Shown: positions 16,750-24,878 of the stretch, one piece after another | Layout of the letters: every line of letters starts with the position of its first letter | Numbering within the stretch: the first letter of the stretch is position 1 | NCBI GenBank assembly: GCA_963780855.1 | Contig: CAWADF010000002.1 | Span: 207,100 to 271,099 of the forward strand | Direction of reading: 5' to 3' | Length of the DNA stretch: 64,000 bases | DNA from: an uncultured Acidobacteriota bacterium | GTDB taxonomy: Bacteria > Acidobacteriota > Vicinamibacteria > Vicinamibacterales > SCN-69-37 | Translations under genes and position numbers: made by a program | The notes under the pieces: model-generated | What the model was told of the DNA's origin: nothing | Seen by the model: the letters and a program-made list of their open reading frames with translations, nothing else | The model's database searches: none

Positions 16750-16836
16750 AAGGTCGAAGTTCGACGCGGAGCTTCGAGGGTCGGCCGCGCCCTCTGATTC
16801 TGAACTTCACACTTCATACTTCGAACTTCTAACTTG
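16720..16836. repeat. Imperfect palindrome of GAAGTTC words
   Basis: Left arm (GAAGTTC GAAGTTG GAAGTTC GAAGTTA GAAGGTC GAAGTTC), about 30-nt centre, right arm TGAACTTCACACTTCATACTTCGAACTTCTAACTT. The radical-SAM stop codon lies inside the left arm. Confidence 0.7.
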
Positions 16837-16863
16837 ATCCCGATCGTGCTAGAACCTTCCGTC

Positions 16864-18164
16864 ATGACCCCTCATGTTGCCCGGCTGTCCACGCTCAGTG
16901 TCGTCTGCGTCGGATTTCTCATGGCGTTGGCCACGCTTGGCGCCCACCAGGGGCGCGGGGCGGGCGCGGCGCCGGCCGGCCAGCAGGCGGCCGGACAGGG
17001 CCGAGGCCAGGGGCGCGGGCGCGGCGGCGCGCCGGTGACGATCCATGCCGCGCGCATCCTCGACGGCAGGGGCGGCGTCATCGACAACGGCGTCATCACG
17101 ATTCAGGGATCGAAGATCACGGCCGTCGGCCCGGCCACCGCGGGCGCGACGTACACGTACGACCTCGGCTCGGCGACCGTGCTGCCGGGCATGATCGACG
17201 TGCACGTCCACCTGAACTGGTACTTCGGGCCGAACGGCAAATACGGCGAGCCGAACGTCCCACCGGACTACGTCGGCCAGGCGATTCAGGCCAACGCGCG
17301 CGCCACGCTGATGGCCGGGTTCACGACCGTGCAGTCGGTCGGCTGGAACGGCGATCCGGCGCTGCGCGACGCGATTGCCGCCGGCATCATCACCGGCCCG
17401 CGGCTGCTGACGTCCGTCCTGCAGATCCAGGGCGGCAACTCGACGCCCGACCAGCTGCGCGAGCGCGTGCGGCAGGCCAAGGCGCAGGGCGCGGACCTGA
17501 TCAAGTTCTTCGCGTCGGGCAGCATCCGCGACGGCGGCAAGATGAACGTGACACAGGAACAGGTGGACGCCGTCTGCGGTGAGGCCAAGGCGCAGGGCCT
17601 CCGCTCGCTTGTCCACGCGCACGATCCGCAGTCGATCATCGCCTCGGTCAAGGCCGGCTGCTCGGAGATCGAGCACGGCCTGTTCGCCGACGATGCGGCG
17701 ATCAAGGCGATGAAGGACGCCGACGTGTATTTCGATCCCGAACATCGGGCTCGTGCTGCAGAACTACCTCGAGAACAAGGACAAGTTCATGGGCAGCGGC
17801 AACTTCAACGCCGAGGGCTTCGCGTCGATGGAAGGCGCGCTGCCCAACCTGGCGGTCGTCTTCAAGAAGGCGCTCGCCGCCGGCCTCAAGATGCCGATGG
17901 GCACTGACGCCGTCGCCGGCGCGCACGGCCAGAACGCGCGCGAGATCGTCGCGCGCGTCGCCGCCGGACAGAAGCCGATGGACGCGATCATCGGCGCGAC
18001 TTCGCTCTCGGCCGACATCGATGAACCTCGGCGACACGATCGGCACGATCGCGCCCGGCTTCGAGGCCGACATCGTCGCCATTCCGGGCAACCCGTTGAC
18101 GGACATCTCGGCGGTCCGGAACGTGAGCTTCGTCATGAAGGGTGGCCGAGTGTACAAGAAGTAG
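16864..18164 (+). CDS. Secreted metal-dependent amidohydrolase (imidazolonepropionase/prolidase-like), two frameshifts (about 17745 and 18010)
   Basis: Signal peptide. Metal motif GMIDVHVHLNW, LVHAHD, and C-terminal IAPGFEADIVAIPGNPLTDI...MKGGRVYKK in a third frame. Confidence 0.8.
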
Positions 18165-18245
18165 GTTCGACTCACTCGCCGCGCGACGGCGCTGCACGCA
18201 TCAGCAGGTTGCGGACACAAGCTGACAATTGACGATATCCGTAGC

Positions 18246-18305
18246 GGACTCTCGGAAGTCAACAGAACGCGGGTTCTCAGACGCTTGCACCCCATCGCGG
18301 GGCCT
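18246..18305. repeat. Copy A of the IS91 terminal hairpin module (direct repeat of 19408-19466)
   Basis: TCTCGGAAGTCAACAGAACGCGGGTTCTCAGACGCTTGCACCCCATCGCGGGG versus copy B TCTCTCAAGTCAACAGAACGCGGGTTCTCAGACGCTGACACCCGATCGCGGGG. Contains stem-loops AGAAC-GCGG-GTTCT and CCCC..GGGG. Confidence 0.6.
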
Positions 18306-18569
18306 GGTCCGAATCGAAGAACTGTTCGTAGGTGAGCGAAATGATCGACTGAAGGAGCACGATGCCGGCCGCGACCGCAAGACAGAGGCCGAGCCCGTTT
18401 CGCCACGCGATGCCGTCGGAGCCTCGCAAGAGCGGGGGGGGACGATGCCGATGGAGCCGCGCTCACGGTCGCCGCATTCTATGGCAGCCGGTAGCGGGAA
18501 GAGACAGCCGTATGAAGCGCGGCGCCCGAATAGCCCACGGCGCTGAAGAGAGCGGCAGCCTCGGTCGGC

Positions 18570-18872
18570 CTAGTCGACGACTCTGAAGATCTCGCGATGG
18601 CCCGACTCCACATGCGGCGTGAATTTCTGGTACGCCGCCTGCCAGCGACTCTCGCCGGAGATCTTCGGCATGGTCTGCTCGAACGCTGCGAGGTTCTCGA
18701 ACGTGAGCTCGCTGACGATGGTGTAGTTCGTGCCGGTCACGTCGGTGAGGACGCGGATGGGCACGGCGTTGACGGTCGTCTGTCTGGCGATGCCGACGAC
18801 TTCCTTGTAGGCCTCCATCGCGTCGCGAGCCTTGCCAAACTTCACCGTGAACACGTTGCGGACGATGATCAT
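18570..18872 (-). CDS. Small dimeric alpha/beta-barrel (NIPSNAP/ABM-like) protein
   Basis: AGGAG RBS 7 nt before MIIVRNVFTVKFGKARDAMEAYKEVV...HREIFRVVD. It is 100 aa; the fold assignment rests on pattern only. Confidence 0.45.
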   Translation of the reverse strand: MIIVRNVFTVKFGKARDAMEAYKEVVGIARQTTVNAVPIRVLTDVTGTNYTIVSELTFENLAAFEQTMPKISGESRWQAAYQKFTPHVESGHREIFRVVD

Positions 18873-18988
18873 GAGAGCTCCTGTGGGATGAAACGCTTTC
18901 CTGGTCGGGTGCCCGCCCAATCAAAGCACATCCCGTGCGCCTTGGCGAGTCAGCGACGACGCGGCAAGCCCGTCGCGCCGCCTGCGCG

Positions 18989-19378
18989 TCAACCCTGCCG
19001 CAGCTGATACGTCCCTCGCGCGTGCATGGTCGCGAATCCTTCGGCGACGAGCGCGCGGTTGCCGAGGCCGGCGTCCGGTCGGGTGAGGCCGGTCACGCGC
19101 GCCAGCTCGCCTGGGACGGTCAGACCCGCGCCCGTCAGGAAACAGCGGGCAATCTCGCGGAGCGCTGTCTCGCGGCTGATGCGCCGGCGCAAGCCGTCGG
19201 GAAAGCGGCCGACGCCGAGCGTCCAGATGTAGGTGAACGGCGTGTAGACCACGTCGCCCGGGATCACGATCATCGCGGCCTGCAGCTCGTCGAGTGCGCG
19301 CGTGAACGCCGCGCGATCCTTCACGCCGGACTCGGCGCGCAGATCGGCCGTGCCCATCTCCCATTCGTGCCGGAGCAC
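18989..19378 (-). pseudogene. 5'-truncated gene fragment for a winged-helix protein (family uncertain), cut at IS91 module copy B
   Basis: The ORF opens immediately after an in-frame TAA at the edge of copy B and has no plausible start or RBS. C-terminal wHTH-like [30 protein letters not shown]. Confidence 0.35.
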
Positions 19379-19407
19379 CTGGAGGATCGCCGATAGTCCG
19401 CATTAAG

Positions 19408-19466
19408 GGGGTCTCTCAAGTCAACAGAACGCGGGTTCTCAGACGCTGACACCCGATCGCGGGGGT
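19408..19466. repeat. Copy B of the IS91 terminal hairpin module (about 140 nt 3' of the transposase stop)
   Basis: See copy A. A CAAG tetranucleotide immediately precedes TCAACAGAAC. Confidence 0.6.
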
Positions 19467-19610
19467 ACATTAGAGACACGGCGTGGATCGGAGCGATGAT
19501 CCGCCCGCTTCGCCTCGGCGTCAACCCCAACCGACACGTTCTGAGCGCCCCCTGGGGCAGGCCTCCGTCCCTCTGCGACAGCGCGATGAATGCCGCCGTG
19601 CTGATGTGGC

Positions 19611-21132
19611 TCAGTCCGCCGCGGCGACAACGTCCCCCTCCAGCTCGTGCGGTGGCGCCCGCGATGGCCGTGCCACGGGCATGGCCTCCGGCAACCCCAA
19701 GTGACGCAGGATGCGTTCCACCACCGGCTTCGCCTGAATCAGCGCCACCAGCCGCAAGCGCCCCCGACAGCGCGGACAGGCCAACACGTCGAACCCGAAC
19801 CCCCGCCGCATCAGTTCCGCCCAAGTCGAGTTCGGCGCGCGCCGTGCGTCGGCGGCCGGCGTGGCTCCCTTGGCCTCCTGCGCATCGACGACCGGCGCCG
19901 CCGGGACGATGTTGCGCCGCCAGGCGGCTCGCGGCGCCAGCACGCCGTGATACAGGATCAGATTCACCCGCGGCCGCGGCACCAGCGCCGCCAGCCGCTC
20001 GAGCAACTCGATCGGCTCGAACAGCACGTGCGTCGTGCCATCACGCCAGCGCCGGTGAAGCTCGAGCACGATCGTCCCGTCCGCCATCGCCTGCAGCCGC
20101 ATCTGTCCCACCGCCGGTCTCAGCGCGTAGCGGCACAGCCGCTCGAGCCGGTCGCGCGCCTTCGCCGGGACGCGAATGCCGGCGTGCAGATCGAAGCCCT
20201 CCTCGTGCGCGTGCCAGGCCATCGCCGTGGCCGCGCCGGGCGCGTCGATCGCCTCATCGCCGCCCCAGCGCCGCGCCGGGACGCCTGCACGGCGACCGAG
20301 CGCGGCGACGCCATGGACCGAGGCCGCGGCGAGTCCCGCCAGTGCCGGCGCCGTCTCCGTCCACGCGTCCGGCACGTCGTCGGCACCGAACCCGCCCGCC
20401 AGGCCGCGCCGGGCCAGGAGGCGATCGATCCCCCGCGCGATGCGACCGAGCAGCCGTGACAAATCCGGCGACGTCCCGCGCGGATCGCGCCAGAACCGCA
20501 CGCGCCCGCCCGGGCCGCGCGCGAAGACGCCGTCGAGCACGAGCGCGTGGACGTGCACGTTGAGATTGAGTGCGCTGCCGAATCGCTGCACGATCGCGAC
20601 CGCACCGAAGCGGCCGCCGACCACACCGCGTCGGCGTGCCCGGGCCCGGAGCCAGCCGCCCACCGCGCGCAGATACACACCGACCACTGCGCGGCAGAGG
20701 GCATGGTCCCACGCGAGCAGATACCGCAGCCGGAGCGGCAGGGTCAGGACCCACTGGCGCACGGGCACCGACGGGAAGACACGACTGGCCAGGTGCGCCG
20801 CGCGCCCGGTCATGCGCCGGCCGCCGCCCCTCGACGATGCTCGGGGTGGCCCTGAGCCCGGTCGAAGGGCCGCAGCTCGGACAGAAGCCGCGGCCCTTGC
20901 AGGAGAACGCGACGAGGCGATCGAGGCCGCACGCCGGGCAGCGAAACCGCGCGAAGCCGCCCGCGAGACTCCCGCACGTCAAAAACTGACGAAACTCCCG
21001 CTCGATGAACGCCGGCAGGCGGTCCCCGCGCCGCCGCGCCGCGCGGGCGAGAAATGTCTCGAGGTGGTCCCGCACGAGCCCATGCAGGATCTCGCGCTCG
21101 GGCGTGCGTGGGCGATAGGCGGCCGACGCCAT
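19611..21132 (-). CDS. IS91-family transposase, one frameshift near 20830-20870
   Basis: N-terminal zinc-binding part FRCPACGLDRLVAFSCKGRGFCPSCG (ORF 20254..21132). Catalytic part with HUH-type LNLNVHVHALVLDGVF and Tyr region ERLCRYALRPAV (ORF 19611..20813). Confidence 0.85.
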
Positions 21133-21356
21133 GGCCGCGCCCGTCGCACGACGCGTGCCGGGTGCGTCAACGCGCCAACCACCATCCCGTCAATCAGTAG
21201 CGCCTCGGCACCCGGGAGACGGTAGCAACGGCGGCGATCAGGCACCTGGTAGAGATCGCAGAAACTTCCACGTGCGGACGTCGGCATTTGACCTCGGCTG
21301 GAAACGAAATGGATCAGCGGCGCCGATTCGATGGTCCCGTGCAGCGTCACAGCTCG

Positions 21357-24300
21357 CTAGTAGAAGTCGTGTGACGCGACCTCCGGCCCTTCATGCCGGA
21401 GCGCGTCCACACGATCGGCTTTGACCGAGACCGCGCCATCCTGATTCTGCAGCACGCCTTCGACCAGCAGATACGGCGCGTCGACGATCGTCCGCTTGTA
21501 CGCGCCGAACACGTCGGGCGTGACGATGACGTTGGCGATGCCGGTTTCGTCCTCGAGCGAGAGAAAGACAAAGCCCTTCGCGGTGCCGGGACGCTGGCGG
21601 ACGAGTACGGCGCCGGCGACGCGCACGCGCCGGCCCGCGCGCGCGCGCAGCAGATCGATCGCGCGCTGCACGCCGCGCGTCGCGAGTGAGGCGCGCAGGA
21701 ACGACATCGGATGCGGCCCAATCGTGAGGCCCGTCCCGTCGTAGTCCGCACGGACGCGATCGGGGAGGGACATGGCGGGCAGAGGAGAGCTCACGTCGGG
21801 CACTGGGCATTGGGCACTAAGCACTGGCGTTGGCGCTGGCGCCGGCTCAGCGTGATCCTCACCAATGCCCAATGCCCAATGCCCAATGCCTGATCCGTCT
21901 GTGTCCATCAACAACGGCCCGGCCGGCCGGCCCGCGCGCTCGGCCTGCCAGAGCGCGGATCGGCGATCGCCGCCGAGCGACGCGAGCGCGCCGATCTCCG
22001 CAAGCGTGCGCAATTCGTCCTGGCGCAGCCCGGCGCGCGCGACCAATTCGTCCAGGGATCGAAAGCGCATGAGATCAGGCACGAGGCATTGGGCGCTAGG
22101 CACTAGCATCGCACGCGTGTCACTCGCCAGTGCCGAATGCCTAATGCCTGGTGCCTGACTTTCTATCCTCTTCCCCACGTCATCTCTCAGCCCTCGTACG
22201 TACCGGAGTCCCAATCGAATCGTCCCGTCGTTTTGCACGACGCAATTCCACTTCGAGATCTGCACGTCAATCGGCGCGAAGCGCACGCCGTGGCGCTGCG
22301 CGTCCTTGACGAGCGTGGCCGGCGAGTAAAACCCCATCGGCTGGTTGTTGAGCAGCGCCGTGTAGAACGCCGCGGGGTAATGCGCTTTCAGATACGCGCT
22401 CGCGTAGACGATCAGCGCGAAGCTTGCCGCGTGCGATTCGGGAAACCCGTAGAGCGCGAACGACGTGATCGACAGCACGATGTCGTCGGCGGCCTGACCG
22501 GTGATGCCGTTCTTCGCCATGCCGTCGCGCAGCCGCTGTTCGATCTGCTGCATCCGCTTCACCGACCGCTTGAAACCCATCGCGCGCCGCAGCTCCTCCG
22601 CCTCACCGCCGGTGAAGCCGGCGACGACCATCGCCATCCGCAGCAGCTGCTCCTGGAACAGCGGCACGCCGAGCGTCCGCTCGAGCACCGGCTCGAGCGC
22701 CGGATGCGCGTAGGTCACCGGCTGGTCGCCCCGGCGGCGCGCCAGGTACGGATGCACCATCTTCCCGACGATCGGCCCGGGCCGGATGATCGCGACTTCG
22801 ACGACCAGATCGTAGAAGTGCTCCGGCTTGAGCCGCGGCAGCGTCGCCATCTGCGCGCGCGACTCCACCTGAAAGACGCCGATGGTGTCGGCGGCCTGCA
22901 GCATGCGATAGACGGCGGGGTCGTCGGGGGGAAGGTGCGCGAGATCGACACGATCAGGCCTCAGGCATTGGGCACCAGGCACTGGCAAGCGGGCATTGGG
23001 CATGAGGCATTGGGCACTCGACGCAGACAGCGGATCATCAGCCACTGCCTGATGCCTGACGCCCGATGCCTGCTCTTCTAGTGCCCGATGCCCAATGCCT
23101 AATGCCTGCTCTCCATTGACAATGACAAGCGCTTCTTCCAATGCCGCCATCATGCCCAGCCCCAGCAGATCGACCTTGATGATCCCGAGGTCCGCGCAGT
23201 CGTCCTTGTCCCACTGCACGACGACGCGGCCGGGCATCGACGCGTTTTCGAGCGGTACGATCTCGTCGAGCCGGCCCTGGCAGACGACCATCCCGCCCGA
23301 GTGCTGGCCCAAATGGCGCGGCAGGTCCTGCATCTGCTGCCACAACCTGGCGAAGAGTCGATACCGCTGGTCGTCGGGATCGAGGCCGGTCTCGCGCAGA
23401 TTGCGCGCGATCGTTTCTTCGGGATCGACGAACTCGAACTGGCTCATCAGCCGCGCCAGCCGGTCGATCTCTGCCGCGTCCAGGTCGAGCACCTTGCCGA
23501 CTTCACGCGTCGCGCTGCGGCCGCGATAGGTGATCACATTGGCGGTCATCGCGGCGCCGAGCGTGCCGTAGCGCTCGTACACGTACTGAATGACGCGCTC
23601 GCGCCGGTCGCCGCTCGGCAGATCGAGATCGATGTCCGGCCACTCGCCGCGCTCCTCCGACAGAAACCGCTCGAAGAGCAGCTCCATCCCCACCGGATCG
23701 ACGGCCGTGATGCCGAGCGCGTAGCACACGGCGCTATTGGCGGCCGACCCGCGCCCCTGCACGAGAATCCCCTGCTGCCGGCAGAAATTGACGAGGTCCC
23801 AGACGATGAGGAAGTAGCCGGCGAGGTCGAGCTTCTCGATCAGATCGAGCTCGCGCTGGATCTGTGCGCGGGCGCGGTCGTGATACGGCCGGTAGCGATC
23901 GCGCGCGCCGACCTGCGCGAGGCGCCGCAGGAACGACGCCTGCGTCTCGCCGTCGGGGACCGGGTAATCGGGAAACTTGTAGCCGAGATCGGCGAGCGTG
24001 AACTCGAGTTGCTCGGCGAGCGCCTCGGTGCCGGCGAGTGCCTGCGGATGATCCGAGAACAGCCGCGCCATGTGGTCGGGCGGTTTGAGATAACGCTCCG
24101 CGTTTGCCGTCAGCCGCCGCCCCGCCCGCGCGAGCGTCGTCTTGTGCCGCAGGCAGGTGAAGACATCGTAGAGCGGACGACCCTCGGGCGCCGCGAAGCG
24201 CACGCCGTTGGTGGCGACGAGCGGCACGCGGAACGCCGCCGACAAATCGACGAGCGATTGCAATGTCGTCTGCTCGTCGCGGCGGAAGTGGCGCTGCAGC

Positions 24301-24878
24301 TCGATCCACACGTTGCGCCGGCCGAACAGGCCGACGAGCCGATCGACGAGGCCGCCGACGCCGTGCCGACGCGCGTCGAGCGCCGACGACCCGACGATCG
24401 CCCGCAGCCCCGCGGTGTGGCCGGCGAAGTCGTCCAGATTGAGCCACGACTCGCCTTTCGGCGCGCGCAGCTTCGCGCGCGTGATGAGCCGGCAGAGGTT
24501 GCGATAGCCCTCGGCGGAGGCGACGAGGACAGGGAGGCTCCAGGCAGGCATTAGGCACTGGGCATTAGGCACTCGCATTGCACGCGCGTCACGCGCGTCA
24601 CTCGCTAATGCCTGATGCCTAGGGCCCAGTGCCTGCTCTCCAGTGCCCAATGCCCGCTCTCCAGTGCCCGCGCCTATCGTCAGTTCCGCGCCGACGATCG
24701 CCTTGATTCCCGCGGCGCGCGCGGCGCGATAGAACTGCGGCGCGCCGTAGACGCCGTCGCGATCGAGCAGCGCCATCGTGGGATAGCCGAGCGCGGCCGC
24801 CCGCTCGACGAGCGTCTCGGGCAGCGATGCGCCATCGAGAAACGAAAACGCCGACGCGGCGTGCAGTTCGATGTACAC
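21357..24878 (-). CDS. dnaE2: Error-prone DNA polymerase DnaE2 (ImuC), intact but carrying four in-frame repeat insertions
   Basis: 1173-aa ORF with PHP start MYIELHAASAFSFLDGAS, pol III alpha core (GVFQVESRAQMATLPRLKP, FYSPATLVKDAQRHG) and a C-terminal OB fold. Third gene of the imuA-imuB-dnaE2 cassette. Confidence 0.95.
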   Translation of the reverse strand: MYIELHAASAFSFLDGASLPETLVERAAALGYPTMALLDRDGVYGAPQFYRAARAAGIKAIVGAELTIGAGTGERALGTGEQALGPRHQALASDARDARAMRVPNAQCLMPAWSLPVLVASAEGYRNLCRLITRAKLRAPKGESWLNLDDFAGHTAGLRAIVGSSALDARRHGVGGLVDRLVGLFGRRNVWIELQRHFRRDEQTTLQSLVDLSAAFRVPLVATNGVRFAAPEGRPLYDVFTCLRHKTTLARAGRRLTANAERYLKPPDHMARLFSDHPQALAGTEALAEQLEFTLADLGYKFPDYPVPDGETQASFLRRLAQVGARDRYRPYHDRARAQIQRELDLIEKLDLAGYFLIVWDLVNFCRQQGILVQGRGSAANSAVCYALGITAVDPVGMELLFERFLSEERGEWPDIDLDLPSGDRRERVIQYVYERYGTLGAAMTANVITYRGRSATREVGKVLDLDAAEIDRLARLMSQFEFVDPEETIARNLRETGLDPDDQRYRLFARLWQQMQDLPRHLGQHSGGMVVCQGRLDEIVPLENASMPGRVVVQWDKDDCADLGIIKVDLLGLGMMAALEEALVIVNGEQALGIGHRALEEQASGVRHQAVADDPLSASSAQCLMPNARLPVPGAQCLRPDRVDLAHLPPDDPAVYRMLQAADTIGVFQVESRAQMATLPRLKPEHFYDLVVEVAIIRPGPIVGKMVHPYLARRRGDQPVTYAHPALEPVLERTLGVPLFQEQLLRMAMVVAGFTGGEAEELRRAMGFKRSVKRMQQIEQRLRDGMAKNGITGQAADDIVLSITSFALYGFPESHAASFALIVYASAYLKAHYPAAFYTALLNNQPMGFYSPATLVKDAQRHGVRFAPIDVQISKWNCVVQNDGTIRLGLRYVRGLRDDVGKRIESQAPGIRHSALASDTRAMLVPSAQCLVPDLMRFRSLDELVARAGLRQDELRTLAEIGALASLGGDRRSALWQAERAGRPAGPLLMDTDGSGIGHWALGIGEDHAEPAPAPTPVLSAQCPVPDVSSPLPAMSLPDRVRADYDGTGLTIGPHPMSFLRASLATRGVQRAIDLLRARAGRRVRVAGAVLVRQRPGTAKGFVFLSLEDETGIANVIVTPDVFGAYKRTIVDAPYLLVEGVLQNQDGAVSVKADRVDALRHEGPEVASHDFY
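21798..21896. repeat. GGCAYTGG-word palindrome inserted in frame in dnaE2 (insert A)
   Basis: GGGCACTGGGCATTGGGCACTAAGCACTGG ... CCAATGCCCAATGCCCAATGCCCAATGCC. Translated (minus) as SGIGHWALGIGEDH...VLSAQCPVPD. Confidence 0.65.
22077..22159. repeat. GGCAYTGG-word palindrome inserted in frame in dnaE2 (insert B)
   Basis: AGGCACGAGGCATTGGGCGCTAGGCACTAGCATCGCACGCGTGTCACTCGCCAGTGCCGAATGCCTAATGCCTGGTGCCTGAC. Translated as QAPGIRHSALASDTRAMLVPSAQCLVPD. Confidence 0.65.
22956..23108. repeat. GGCAYTGG-word palindrome inserted in frame in dnaE2 (insert C, about 150 bp)
   Basis: AGGCCTCAGGCATTGGGCACCAGGCACTGGCAAGCGGGCATTGGGCATGAGGCATTGGGCACT ... GCCTGATGCCTGACGCCCGATGCC..GTGCCCGATGCCCAATGCCTAATGCCTG. 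Translated as EQALGIGHRALEEQASGVRHQ...SAQCLMPNARLPVPGAQCLRP. Confidence 0.65.
24541..24671. repeat. GGCAYTGG-word palindrome inserted in frame in the dnaE2 PHP domain (insert D)
   Basis: CAGGCAGGCATTAGGCACTGGGCATTAGGCACTCGCATTGCACGCGCGTCACGCGCGTCACTCGCTAATGCCTGATGCC...CAGTGCCCAATGCCCGC. Its loop core GCACGCG.GTCACTCGC is shared with insert B. Confidence 0.65.

Follow-up and report, generated by a model that had tools for sequence, protein, structure and literature searches.

An ISCR-like IS91-family element carrying foreign DNA on its presumed origin side in a Vicinamibacterales chromosome: a candidate composite rolling-circle transposon

The prototype of the IS91 family of insertion sequences (IS) encodes an HUH transposase with a zinc-binding N-terminus and, in place of the usual terminal inverted repeats, has two different ends with subterminal palindromes: terIS, with one palindrome, lies upstream of orf121 and tnpA, and oriIS, with two, lies downstream of them (PMC13181058). 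The bottom-strand circle is the active form, and failure to terminate carries along DNA from beyond terIS (PMC13181058). ISCR elements share this layout, with a promoter within the terIS region (PMC13393415), and their variable or captured DNA is found on the oriIS side (PMC6218425). For IS801, 26% of the insertions recovered in a trap assay were right-end fragments of 229, 360 or 679 nt ending at an internal tetranucleotide (PMC3189936), and it has been stated that every IS801 fragment with ori801 in it could potentially be mobilised (PMC6354349). The present analysis concerns an ISCR-like element in a 64,000-nt stretch of DNA (the window, whose numbering is used below) from an uncultured soil Vicinamibacterales bacterium. 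The element lies between an amidohydrolase gene and dnaE2 together with about 1.1 kb of foreign passenger DNA, and the outer boundary of this passenger is a solo end of about 70 nt. We consider it on balance probable that the unit is a composite rolling-circle transposon, in which the solo end (copy A) acted as an upstream origin and transposition ran through passenger and IS to the IS's own terIS.

A preliminary description of this DNA had reported a directly repeated module beside an IS91-family transposase gene, and this is confirmed. A repeat search of the window returns one two-copy family, 53 nt long (18250-18302 and 19412-19464), with 91% identity and a spacing of 1162 nt, and there are exactly two occurrences of the 30-mer AAGTCAACAGAACGCGGGTTCTCAGACGCT in the window, where 100 shuffles gave an expectation of 0.00. 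The neighbouring transposase gene matches both PF04986 and PF14319. The features of the locus are listed below in the order of the window; G000 denotes the source genome, and G001 to G004 denote congeners.

16834 to 18164, plus strand: left flank, amidohydrolase gene (PF01979, E 1e-21; 82-87% identical to G001-G004)
~18213 to 21318, no strand assigned: inserted block of ~3.1 kb (solo end A, passenger, end B, IS), limits set by G002 homology
~18229 to 18302, plus strand: copy A, candidate solo ori-end fragment of ~70 nt with no IS interior behind it; inner limit ~18300 by alignment
18303 to 18561, no strand assigned: passenger part 1, a non-coding remnant whose first ~105 nt resemble DNA beside a 671-aa open reading frame (ORF) elsewhere on the contig
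18570 to 18920, minus strand: passenger part 2, an intact gene for a NIPSNAP-type small alpha/beta-barrel protein (PF07978, E 3.8e-5)
18989 to 19387, minus strand: passenger part 3, a truncated AlkZ-related gene, of which the IS leaves the 3' part (C-terminal ~130 codons)
19388 to 19466, plus strand: copy B, the IS's own transposase-distal end (oriIS position), with three short hairpins; the AlkZ junction follows GGAGGAT
19496 to 19524, minus strand: promoter-like site TTGACG-17-GATCAT, outward-facing, between transposase stop and end B, toward the AlkZ fragment and the NIPSNAP gene
19611 to 20813, minus strand: transposase, C-terminal 400 codons, Y2_Tnp domain with HUH motif (PF04986, E 5e-24, 85.7 bits, cut-off 20.9)
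20823 to 20868, minus strand: frame-shifting, hairpin-forming insert of 46 nt (41 nt whose ends form 8-nt inverted repeats, and a duplicated GCGGC)
20869 to 21132, minus strand: transposase, N-terminal 88 codons, zinc-binding domain (PF14319, Zn_Tnp_IS91, E 8e-12, 45.4 bits, cut-off 26.3)
21133 to 21271, minus strand: terIS-side end, with a GCAGAAnCTGC palindrome at 21257-21267 and a degenerate second copy at 21224-21234
21357 to 24878, minus strand: right flank, dnaE2 (error-prone polymerase), kept in congeners

The segment 18213-21318 is a single insertion between the amidohydrolase gene and dnaE2, since the stop codons of these genes are 58 nt apart in G001 and homology to G002 breaks at the block edges, ending at 18212 and picking up again at ~21319. 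The left break lies 16 nt outside copy A and the right one at most ~50 nt from the ter-side end. In 5/5 congeners the two genes are convergent neighbours. The gap between them is hypervariable in the genus, at 58 nt, 0.87, 2.9 and 4.2 kb, and falls on split contigs in G003; the 2.9-kb gap, that of G002, contains a Ser/Thr kinase gene with PD40 repeats. Relative to G002, the amidohydrolase frame in the window is broken by two 1-nt insertions, at 17740 and 18016. As the source genome consists of 9 contigs with a completeness of 59.6% and assembly indel errors are possible, such frameshift calls have to be treated with care.

The 1.1 kb between the module copies is foreign to the amidohydrolase-dnaE2 site: in genomes without the IS, the 18.3-19.4 kb segment is not syntenic there. 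Its content is as first described, namely a small alpha/beta-barrel gene, a fragment whose reading frame opens at the edge of copy B, and a short remnant. From ~18300 on, the window is 85% like C2:163134-163030, a stretch without the module, and no Pfam match was found for the ORFs of the 18303-18561 remnant. At 93% identity, the NIPSNAP segment (18562-18958) matches G003:C152:8627-9017. For the AlkZ fragment (18984-19387), the matches are intact 268-aa orthologues in G001 and G004 (90% identity; PF24741, 84.7 bits), where the locus lies 21-37 kb from the amidohydrolase-dnaE2 junction and in opposite orientation. AlkZ homology stops at 19387, the base before copy B, where the window turns from ...GGAGGAT to CGCCGATAGTCCGCATTA..., and the orthologues of G001, G003 and G004 are uninterrupted across the position of this junction. 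Because the AlkZ-IS junction is preserved at the new site, the IS and its passenger moved jointly, in keeping with the earlier suggestion that the 1.1 kb travelled with the IS.

That the module is the end of the element, as had been proposed, is borne out by related loci. Of 80 related loci drawn from many genomes, 41 have a match to a hidden Markov model of the module at 150-300 nt past the transposase stop codon, with the relative orientation unchanged. Among five congeners, G003 alone has transposase fragments and G003 alone has the module. The module is thus the transposase-distal end of the IS and came in with it. Solo copies with a sharp inner edge and no IS interior do exist, as would be expected of a host REP-like repeat that serves as a target for the IS without being part of it, but this reading is hardly tenable. 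The module lies within a gene that three congeners have in unbroken form; the four congeners without the transposase also lack the module, and across genera its divergence keeps pace with that of the transposase. Since the AlkZ orthologues read on across the junction, the module arrived with the IS and did not pre-exist as a target, which effectively refutes the host-repeat idea.

When the module is aligned with its other genomic copies, its conserved part is seen to begin ~20 nt further out than first given. The end of copy B is separated from the transposase stop codon (19611) by 145 nt. Copy A has a 4-nt deletion within the first hairpin, and no module copy in the genome is closer to it than copy B (93.6% over 47 nt), which points to descent from the copy B lineage. 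The three hairpins read CCGC-ATTA-GCGG, AGAAC-N4-GTTCT and CCCG-ATCG-CGGG. Over 34 copies, 80% of cells pair in the middle helix AGAAC/GTTCT, where 9 sequences have a double change from G-C to U-A; for the first helix, CCGC/GCGG, the figure is 58%. Folding energies of the module show no difference from shuffles (z -0.2 to -0.5). The stem-loops of the preliminary description stand as conserved sequence features whose structural support is modest. Short tandem duplications (units of 31-100 nt) within the ori module were seen at L063:5646-5768, L097:5636-5764 and L064:5656-6063. The edges of their units lie directly after a conserved ..CAGAC(C/G), suggesting that cleavage or re-joining recurs at that point.

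The distance from the module tip to the transposase stop codon is 223 nt, where ISCR1 has ~232 nt and ISCR2 ~237 nt, the tips of these two having been read from plasmid records. The tips themselves are ..TTCCTATACC and ..TTCCTATACG in ISCR1 and ISCR2, respectively, versus ..GGCCTATCGTC in the present family, and a CCTAT motif lies 3-5 nt from the tip in all three. Given the IS91/ISCR layout and this likeness to ISCR1 and ISCR2 in tip distance and motif, the module is, by analogy, taken to be an oriIS-type initiation end and not a terminator. In Helitrons, which are rolling-circle HUH elements with a Rep-helicase fusion, the hairpin end downstream of the transposase gene is the terminator, and genes are captured by bypass of that end. 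They resemble the present locus in having captured host fragments between duplicated hairpin ends, but differ in the terminator role of the hairpin end and in the Rep-helicase fusion, and the homology is remote. By a comparable 3'-end bypass, replication could here have begun at the transposase-proximal end, passed copy B and stopped at copy A as a second terminator. Such a course predicts the same block boundaries, and the polarity of ISCR-like elements is without an experimental test (PMC6218425). We nevertheless regard it as distinctly unlikely, since genetic work on IS91 puts oriIS on the downstream and terIS on the upstream side of tnpA, with one-ended products that extend past terIS (PMC13181058, PMC3189936), since position and terminal motif match the oriIS of ISCR1 and ISCR2, and since early termination after ori initiation in IS801 yields solos that keep the oriIS-type end.

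The side on which the passenger lies also bears on the mechanism first put forward, mis-termination with read-through. One-ended transposition of IS91 and ISCR elements extends past terIS (PMC13181058, PMC13393415), whereas the passenger here lies on the side of ori, unlike the DNA carried beyond terIS in IS91. Classic terIS read-through captures the other side and so does not give the present arrangement, while initiation at an outer ori does. The order of events that we infer would start with entry of the IS (19388 to ~21271-21318, transposase on the minus strand) into the AlkZ-related gene at its native locus. A miniature origin-end fragment, the copy A of ~70 nt, would then have landed 1.16 kb further out in the same orientation; in the IS91 family such fragments form when oriIS-initiated transposition stops early. 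A transposase, acting in cis or in trans, would have nicked at copy A rather than at copy B, and strand displacement would have crossed the whole passenger (remnant, NIPSNAP gene and AlkZ 3' fragment) and then copy B and the transposase gene, to halt at the IS's terIS. The resulting 3.1-kb unit would have been pasted between the amidohydrolase gene and dnaE2. Later decay would include the 46-nt insert that splits the transposase gene and the loss of 4 nt from copy A. Transposition from copy A to terIS would explain why synteny breaks at the outer edge of A and at the far end of the IS, and why the AlkZ-IS junction was kept.

As miniature ori fragments of IS801 insert on their own (PMC3189936) and lone solos occur in the source genome, for example at C8:1568190, copy A might also be an independent miniature insertion that by chance sits at the edge of DNA brought in by an unrelated event. 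This is very improbable: copy A lies at most 16 nt from one synteny break, the other break coincides with the far end of the IS, and the AlkZ-IS junction shows passenger and IS to have been linked beforehand. The proposed course from copy A resembles what has been described for IS801, in which short origin-end fragments have a discrete internal stop, ori-bearing fragments mobilise the DNA that follows them and the transposase can be supplied in trans (Bardaji et al. 2011, PMC3189936; 2019, PMC6354349). The IS801 work trapped fragments and ter-side captures, however, while here a solo ori lies outside an IS of intact length and the unit ends at the terminator of that IS. Moreover, the present transposase is ISCR-like and not IS801-like, and no GAAC-type tetranucleotide is present.

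The state of the native AlkZ position in the source genome has to be considered as well. Compared with G004, this position (G000:C2:122600-204970) holds ~82 kb of extra DNA, which contains IS fragments as well as four module copies (at 185.5, 189.6, 191.9 and 199.1 kb) and probably represents an island reworked by IS activity. The IS remnant at C2:199k was considered as the donor and rejected on account of its wrong orientation and 79% identity. The 20 kb from the native AlkZ position to the dnaE2 site are still collinear with G004, which eliminates a simple inversion or deletion as the source of the arrangement. More elaborate recombination can be envisaged: a small circle or segment with the passenger between two ori ends in direct orientation could have formed at the AlkZ locus and entered a resident IS at the dnaE2 site through homologous recombination in the 70-nt module, or several IS-mediated inversions and deletions could have occurred. 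The ~16 module copies and many IS fragments of the genome are available as substrates, the IS-rich extra DNA lies exactly at the native AlkZ position, and a retrospective analysis of IS801 attributed most genomic fragments to reorganisation and not to one-ended transposition (PMC3189936). In addition, the block stands where G002 has its kinase gene, so that a deletion or replacement may have happened too. This alternative is unlikely, as it needs more steps, ~70 nt of homology at 91% is a poor substrate, and the collinear 20 kb leave no room for its simplest forms.

Several points nevertheless weigh against a composite transposon initiated at copy A. The polarity of the module end rests on analogy, and no ISCR element has yet been shown to transpose (PMC6218425). 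Copy A has a degenerate first hairpin, and its origin function is putative. In G003, the NIPSNAP and AlkZ genes share contig and orientation but are 8.3 kb apart; the G000 assembly lacks the AlkZ orthologue's 5' half, which leaves no donor copy. There is no exact empty site, owing to the hypervariable junction, and the model does not account for 16 nt at the left edge of the block and 0-50 nt at its right edge. Finally, GAAC, CAAG, GTTC or CTTG abutting the ori end was found neither in the flanks of 10 G000 copies nor in those of more than 25 relatives. The GAAC/CAAG target tetranucleotides that the preliminary description expected at the junctions of the block were likewise looked for there and are absent, GAAC occurring only within hairpin 2. 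What precedes AG(G/T)CCGCATTAG instead is a stretch of 6-9 nt that is common within a lineage and differs between lineages. Exact-pattern scans of metagenomes for the predicted empty junction and for the left flank gave 0 matches.

The transposase gene is split, a feature absent from the preliminary description. The N-terminal part, which ends at CPSCG, aligns with residues 1-84 of an intact relative at 75% identity, and the C-terminal part with residues 88-473 at 63%. The 46-nt insert between them has an identical second copy at C9:810-855, where it interrupts, at the corresponding codon (after CPSCG), an IS copy with an internal deletion (C9:430-1075); the two IS copies are otherwise ~84% identical. 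With only two copies in the genome, both inside IS copies, the insert does not qualify as a genome-wide miniature element, and it was found in no further genome of the 71 searched in the family. In four intact relatives, H174-x-H176 (NLNVHxHA) is invariant and a single invariant tyrosine, Y316, lies in CRYxLRP, with no second tyrosine four residues away. ISCR transposases may also have a single tyrosine. Identity is 36% to ISCR1 and 42% to ISCR2 over 80-98% of the length, and the relatives of the transposase belong to Acidobacteriota, Vicinamibacterales. With an intact relative as query, the best NCBIfam model is ISCR_clade_Ia at 303 bits, far below its cut-off of 925, and transpos_IS91 reaches 106 bits against a cut-off of 125. 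The element also differs from IS91 in having neither orf121 nor a CTTG/GTTC target. It thus belongs to the IS91 family by its domains and end layout, yet falls below both NCBIfam cut-offs and is without the family target tetranucleotide; by sequence comparison it forms a distinct ISCR-like branch of the family.

Among described systems, ISCR elements (ISCR1 in complex class 1 integrons, ISCR2/ISVsa3 in units with truncated copies) come close in having oriIS ~220-240 nt past the stop codon with a CCTAT-type tip, in addition to the oriIS-side passengers mentioned above. They differ in that the host here is a soil chromosome, the passengers are housekeeping fragments and not resistance genes, and the outer boundary is a 70-nt solo end and not a second ISCR copy or a 3'-CS. 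The promoter-like site at 19496-19524 recalls the POUT promoters of ISCR1. It is the sole such match in 18150-21400, against 0.1 expected; much of its stretch (GATGATCCGC...) is common to three other IS-linked copies in the genome, in only one of which TTGACG is readable. A further observation concerns two ISCR-like copies 72 kb apart in one genome (L070:5719-7092 and L077:5716-7089), which have the same nested IS between transposase gene and ori module. The nested IS encodes a 458-aa transposase-like protein with an HTH domain that is identical in both, while the host copies are 88.6% identical overall.

At the other end of the element, comparison of related copies places the true ter-side terminus within 21263-21318, likeness to the C9 copy stopping at ~21263. 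The GCAGAAnCTGC palindromes, a pair ~25 nt apart in the terIS/promoter region, are kept in 25 relatives; LexA boxes are known from the corresponding region of ISCR1, ISCR2 and ISCR8 (PMC13393415). At L065 (3704-3750 and 5680-5737) and L049 (3792-3831 and 5622-5662), the ter- and ori-side ends show 41-58 nt of inverted similarity, which resembles IRL/IRR of IS91. At L088, a 139-nt direct copy of the ter-side region lies 0.8 kb past the ori end.

Solo ends such as copy A are common, and they are one-sided. The source genome has ~16 module copies, of which four IS-linked ones continue into the IS interior; the others (seven solos aligned) stop sharply at ..GATCGCGG(G). Solos of 57-196 nt at L052, L061, L066, L068 and L093 are mostly 92-100% identical to the adjacent IS end and have one discrete inner edge. 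Their inner ends read ..TACG (L052) and ..CACG (L061), those of G000 solos read ..ATCGCGG, and the ter-side palindrome also lies next to ..CACG. In 27 loci both flanks extend to at least 2.6 kb; of these, six (L052, L061, L064, L068, L093, L097) have additional ori ends in direct orientation on the ori-outward side, and none has them on the ter side. The four IS-linked clusters of G000 conform to this pattern. The L061 genome has solos 2.4, 11.4, 15.4 and 33 kb outward, and the L052 genome has them 3.0 and 5.6 kb outward, with one distant inverted copy. Only ori-outward, direct solos can ride along in ori-to-ter replication, which would account for the position and orientation of those near an IS.

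With the replication fork direction taken from GC skew, 13 of the 16 modules of G000 point along with it. A coupling of the one-sidedness to the fork was discarded, as at 15 IS sites in 12 other genomes the transposase gene is leading in 9 and lagging in 6 (6 versus 4 at |z| >= 2). A cluster of four solo modules in 3.4 kb (G000:C8:1566249-1569632, L116) contains at least two sequence subfamilies, and two of its modules face each other ~100 nt apart. The C9 cluster of G000 has no homologue in congeners and so no empty site, and those on C7 and C8 lie in patchwork accessory DNA, with no usable empty site.

ISCR elements matter because they build resistance-gene regions, and plain one-ended transposition gives no account of why their passengers are on the oriIS side. 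The present locus, a natural example of a known route of DNA pick-up and not a new kind of element, is an environmental case free of resistance selection in which the donor junction (the IS in AlkZ), the passenger and the new site can all be read from congeners. Its outer boundary is a bare 70-nt origin-type fragment, which, together with the one-sided solos, offers a concrete and testable route for ori-side capture. It is conceivable, although we put it forward only tentatively and with more doubt than conviction, that ISCR-like elements regularly leave miniature origin ends ori-outward and that such outer origins, rather than terminator read-through, are their usual route of capture. If so, this would explain why ISCR passengers are found on the 'wrong' side, and the extra ends at 6 versus 0 of 27 loci, with trails of up to 33 kb, would be the footprint of repeated co-mobilisation or of directional local hopping.

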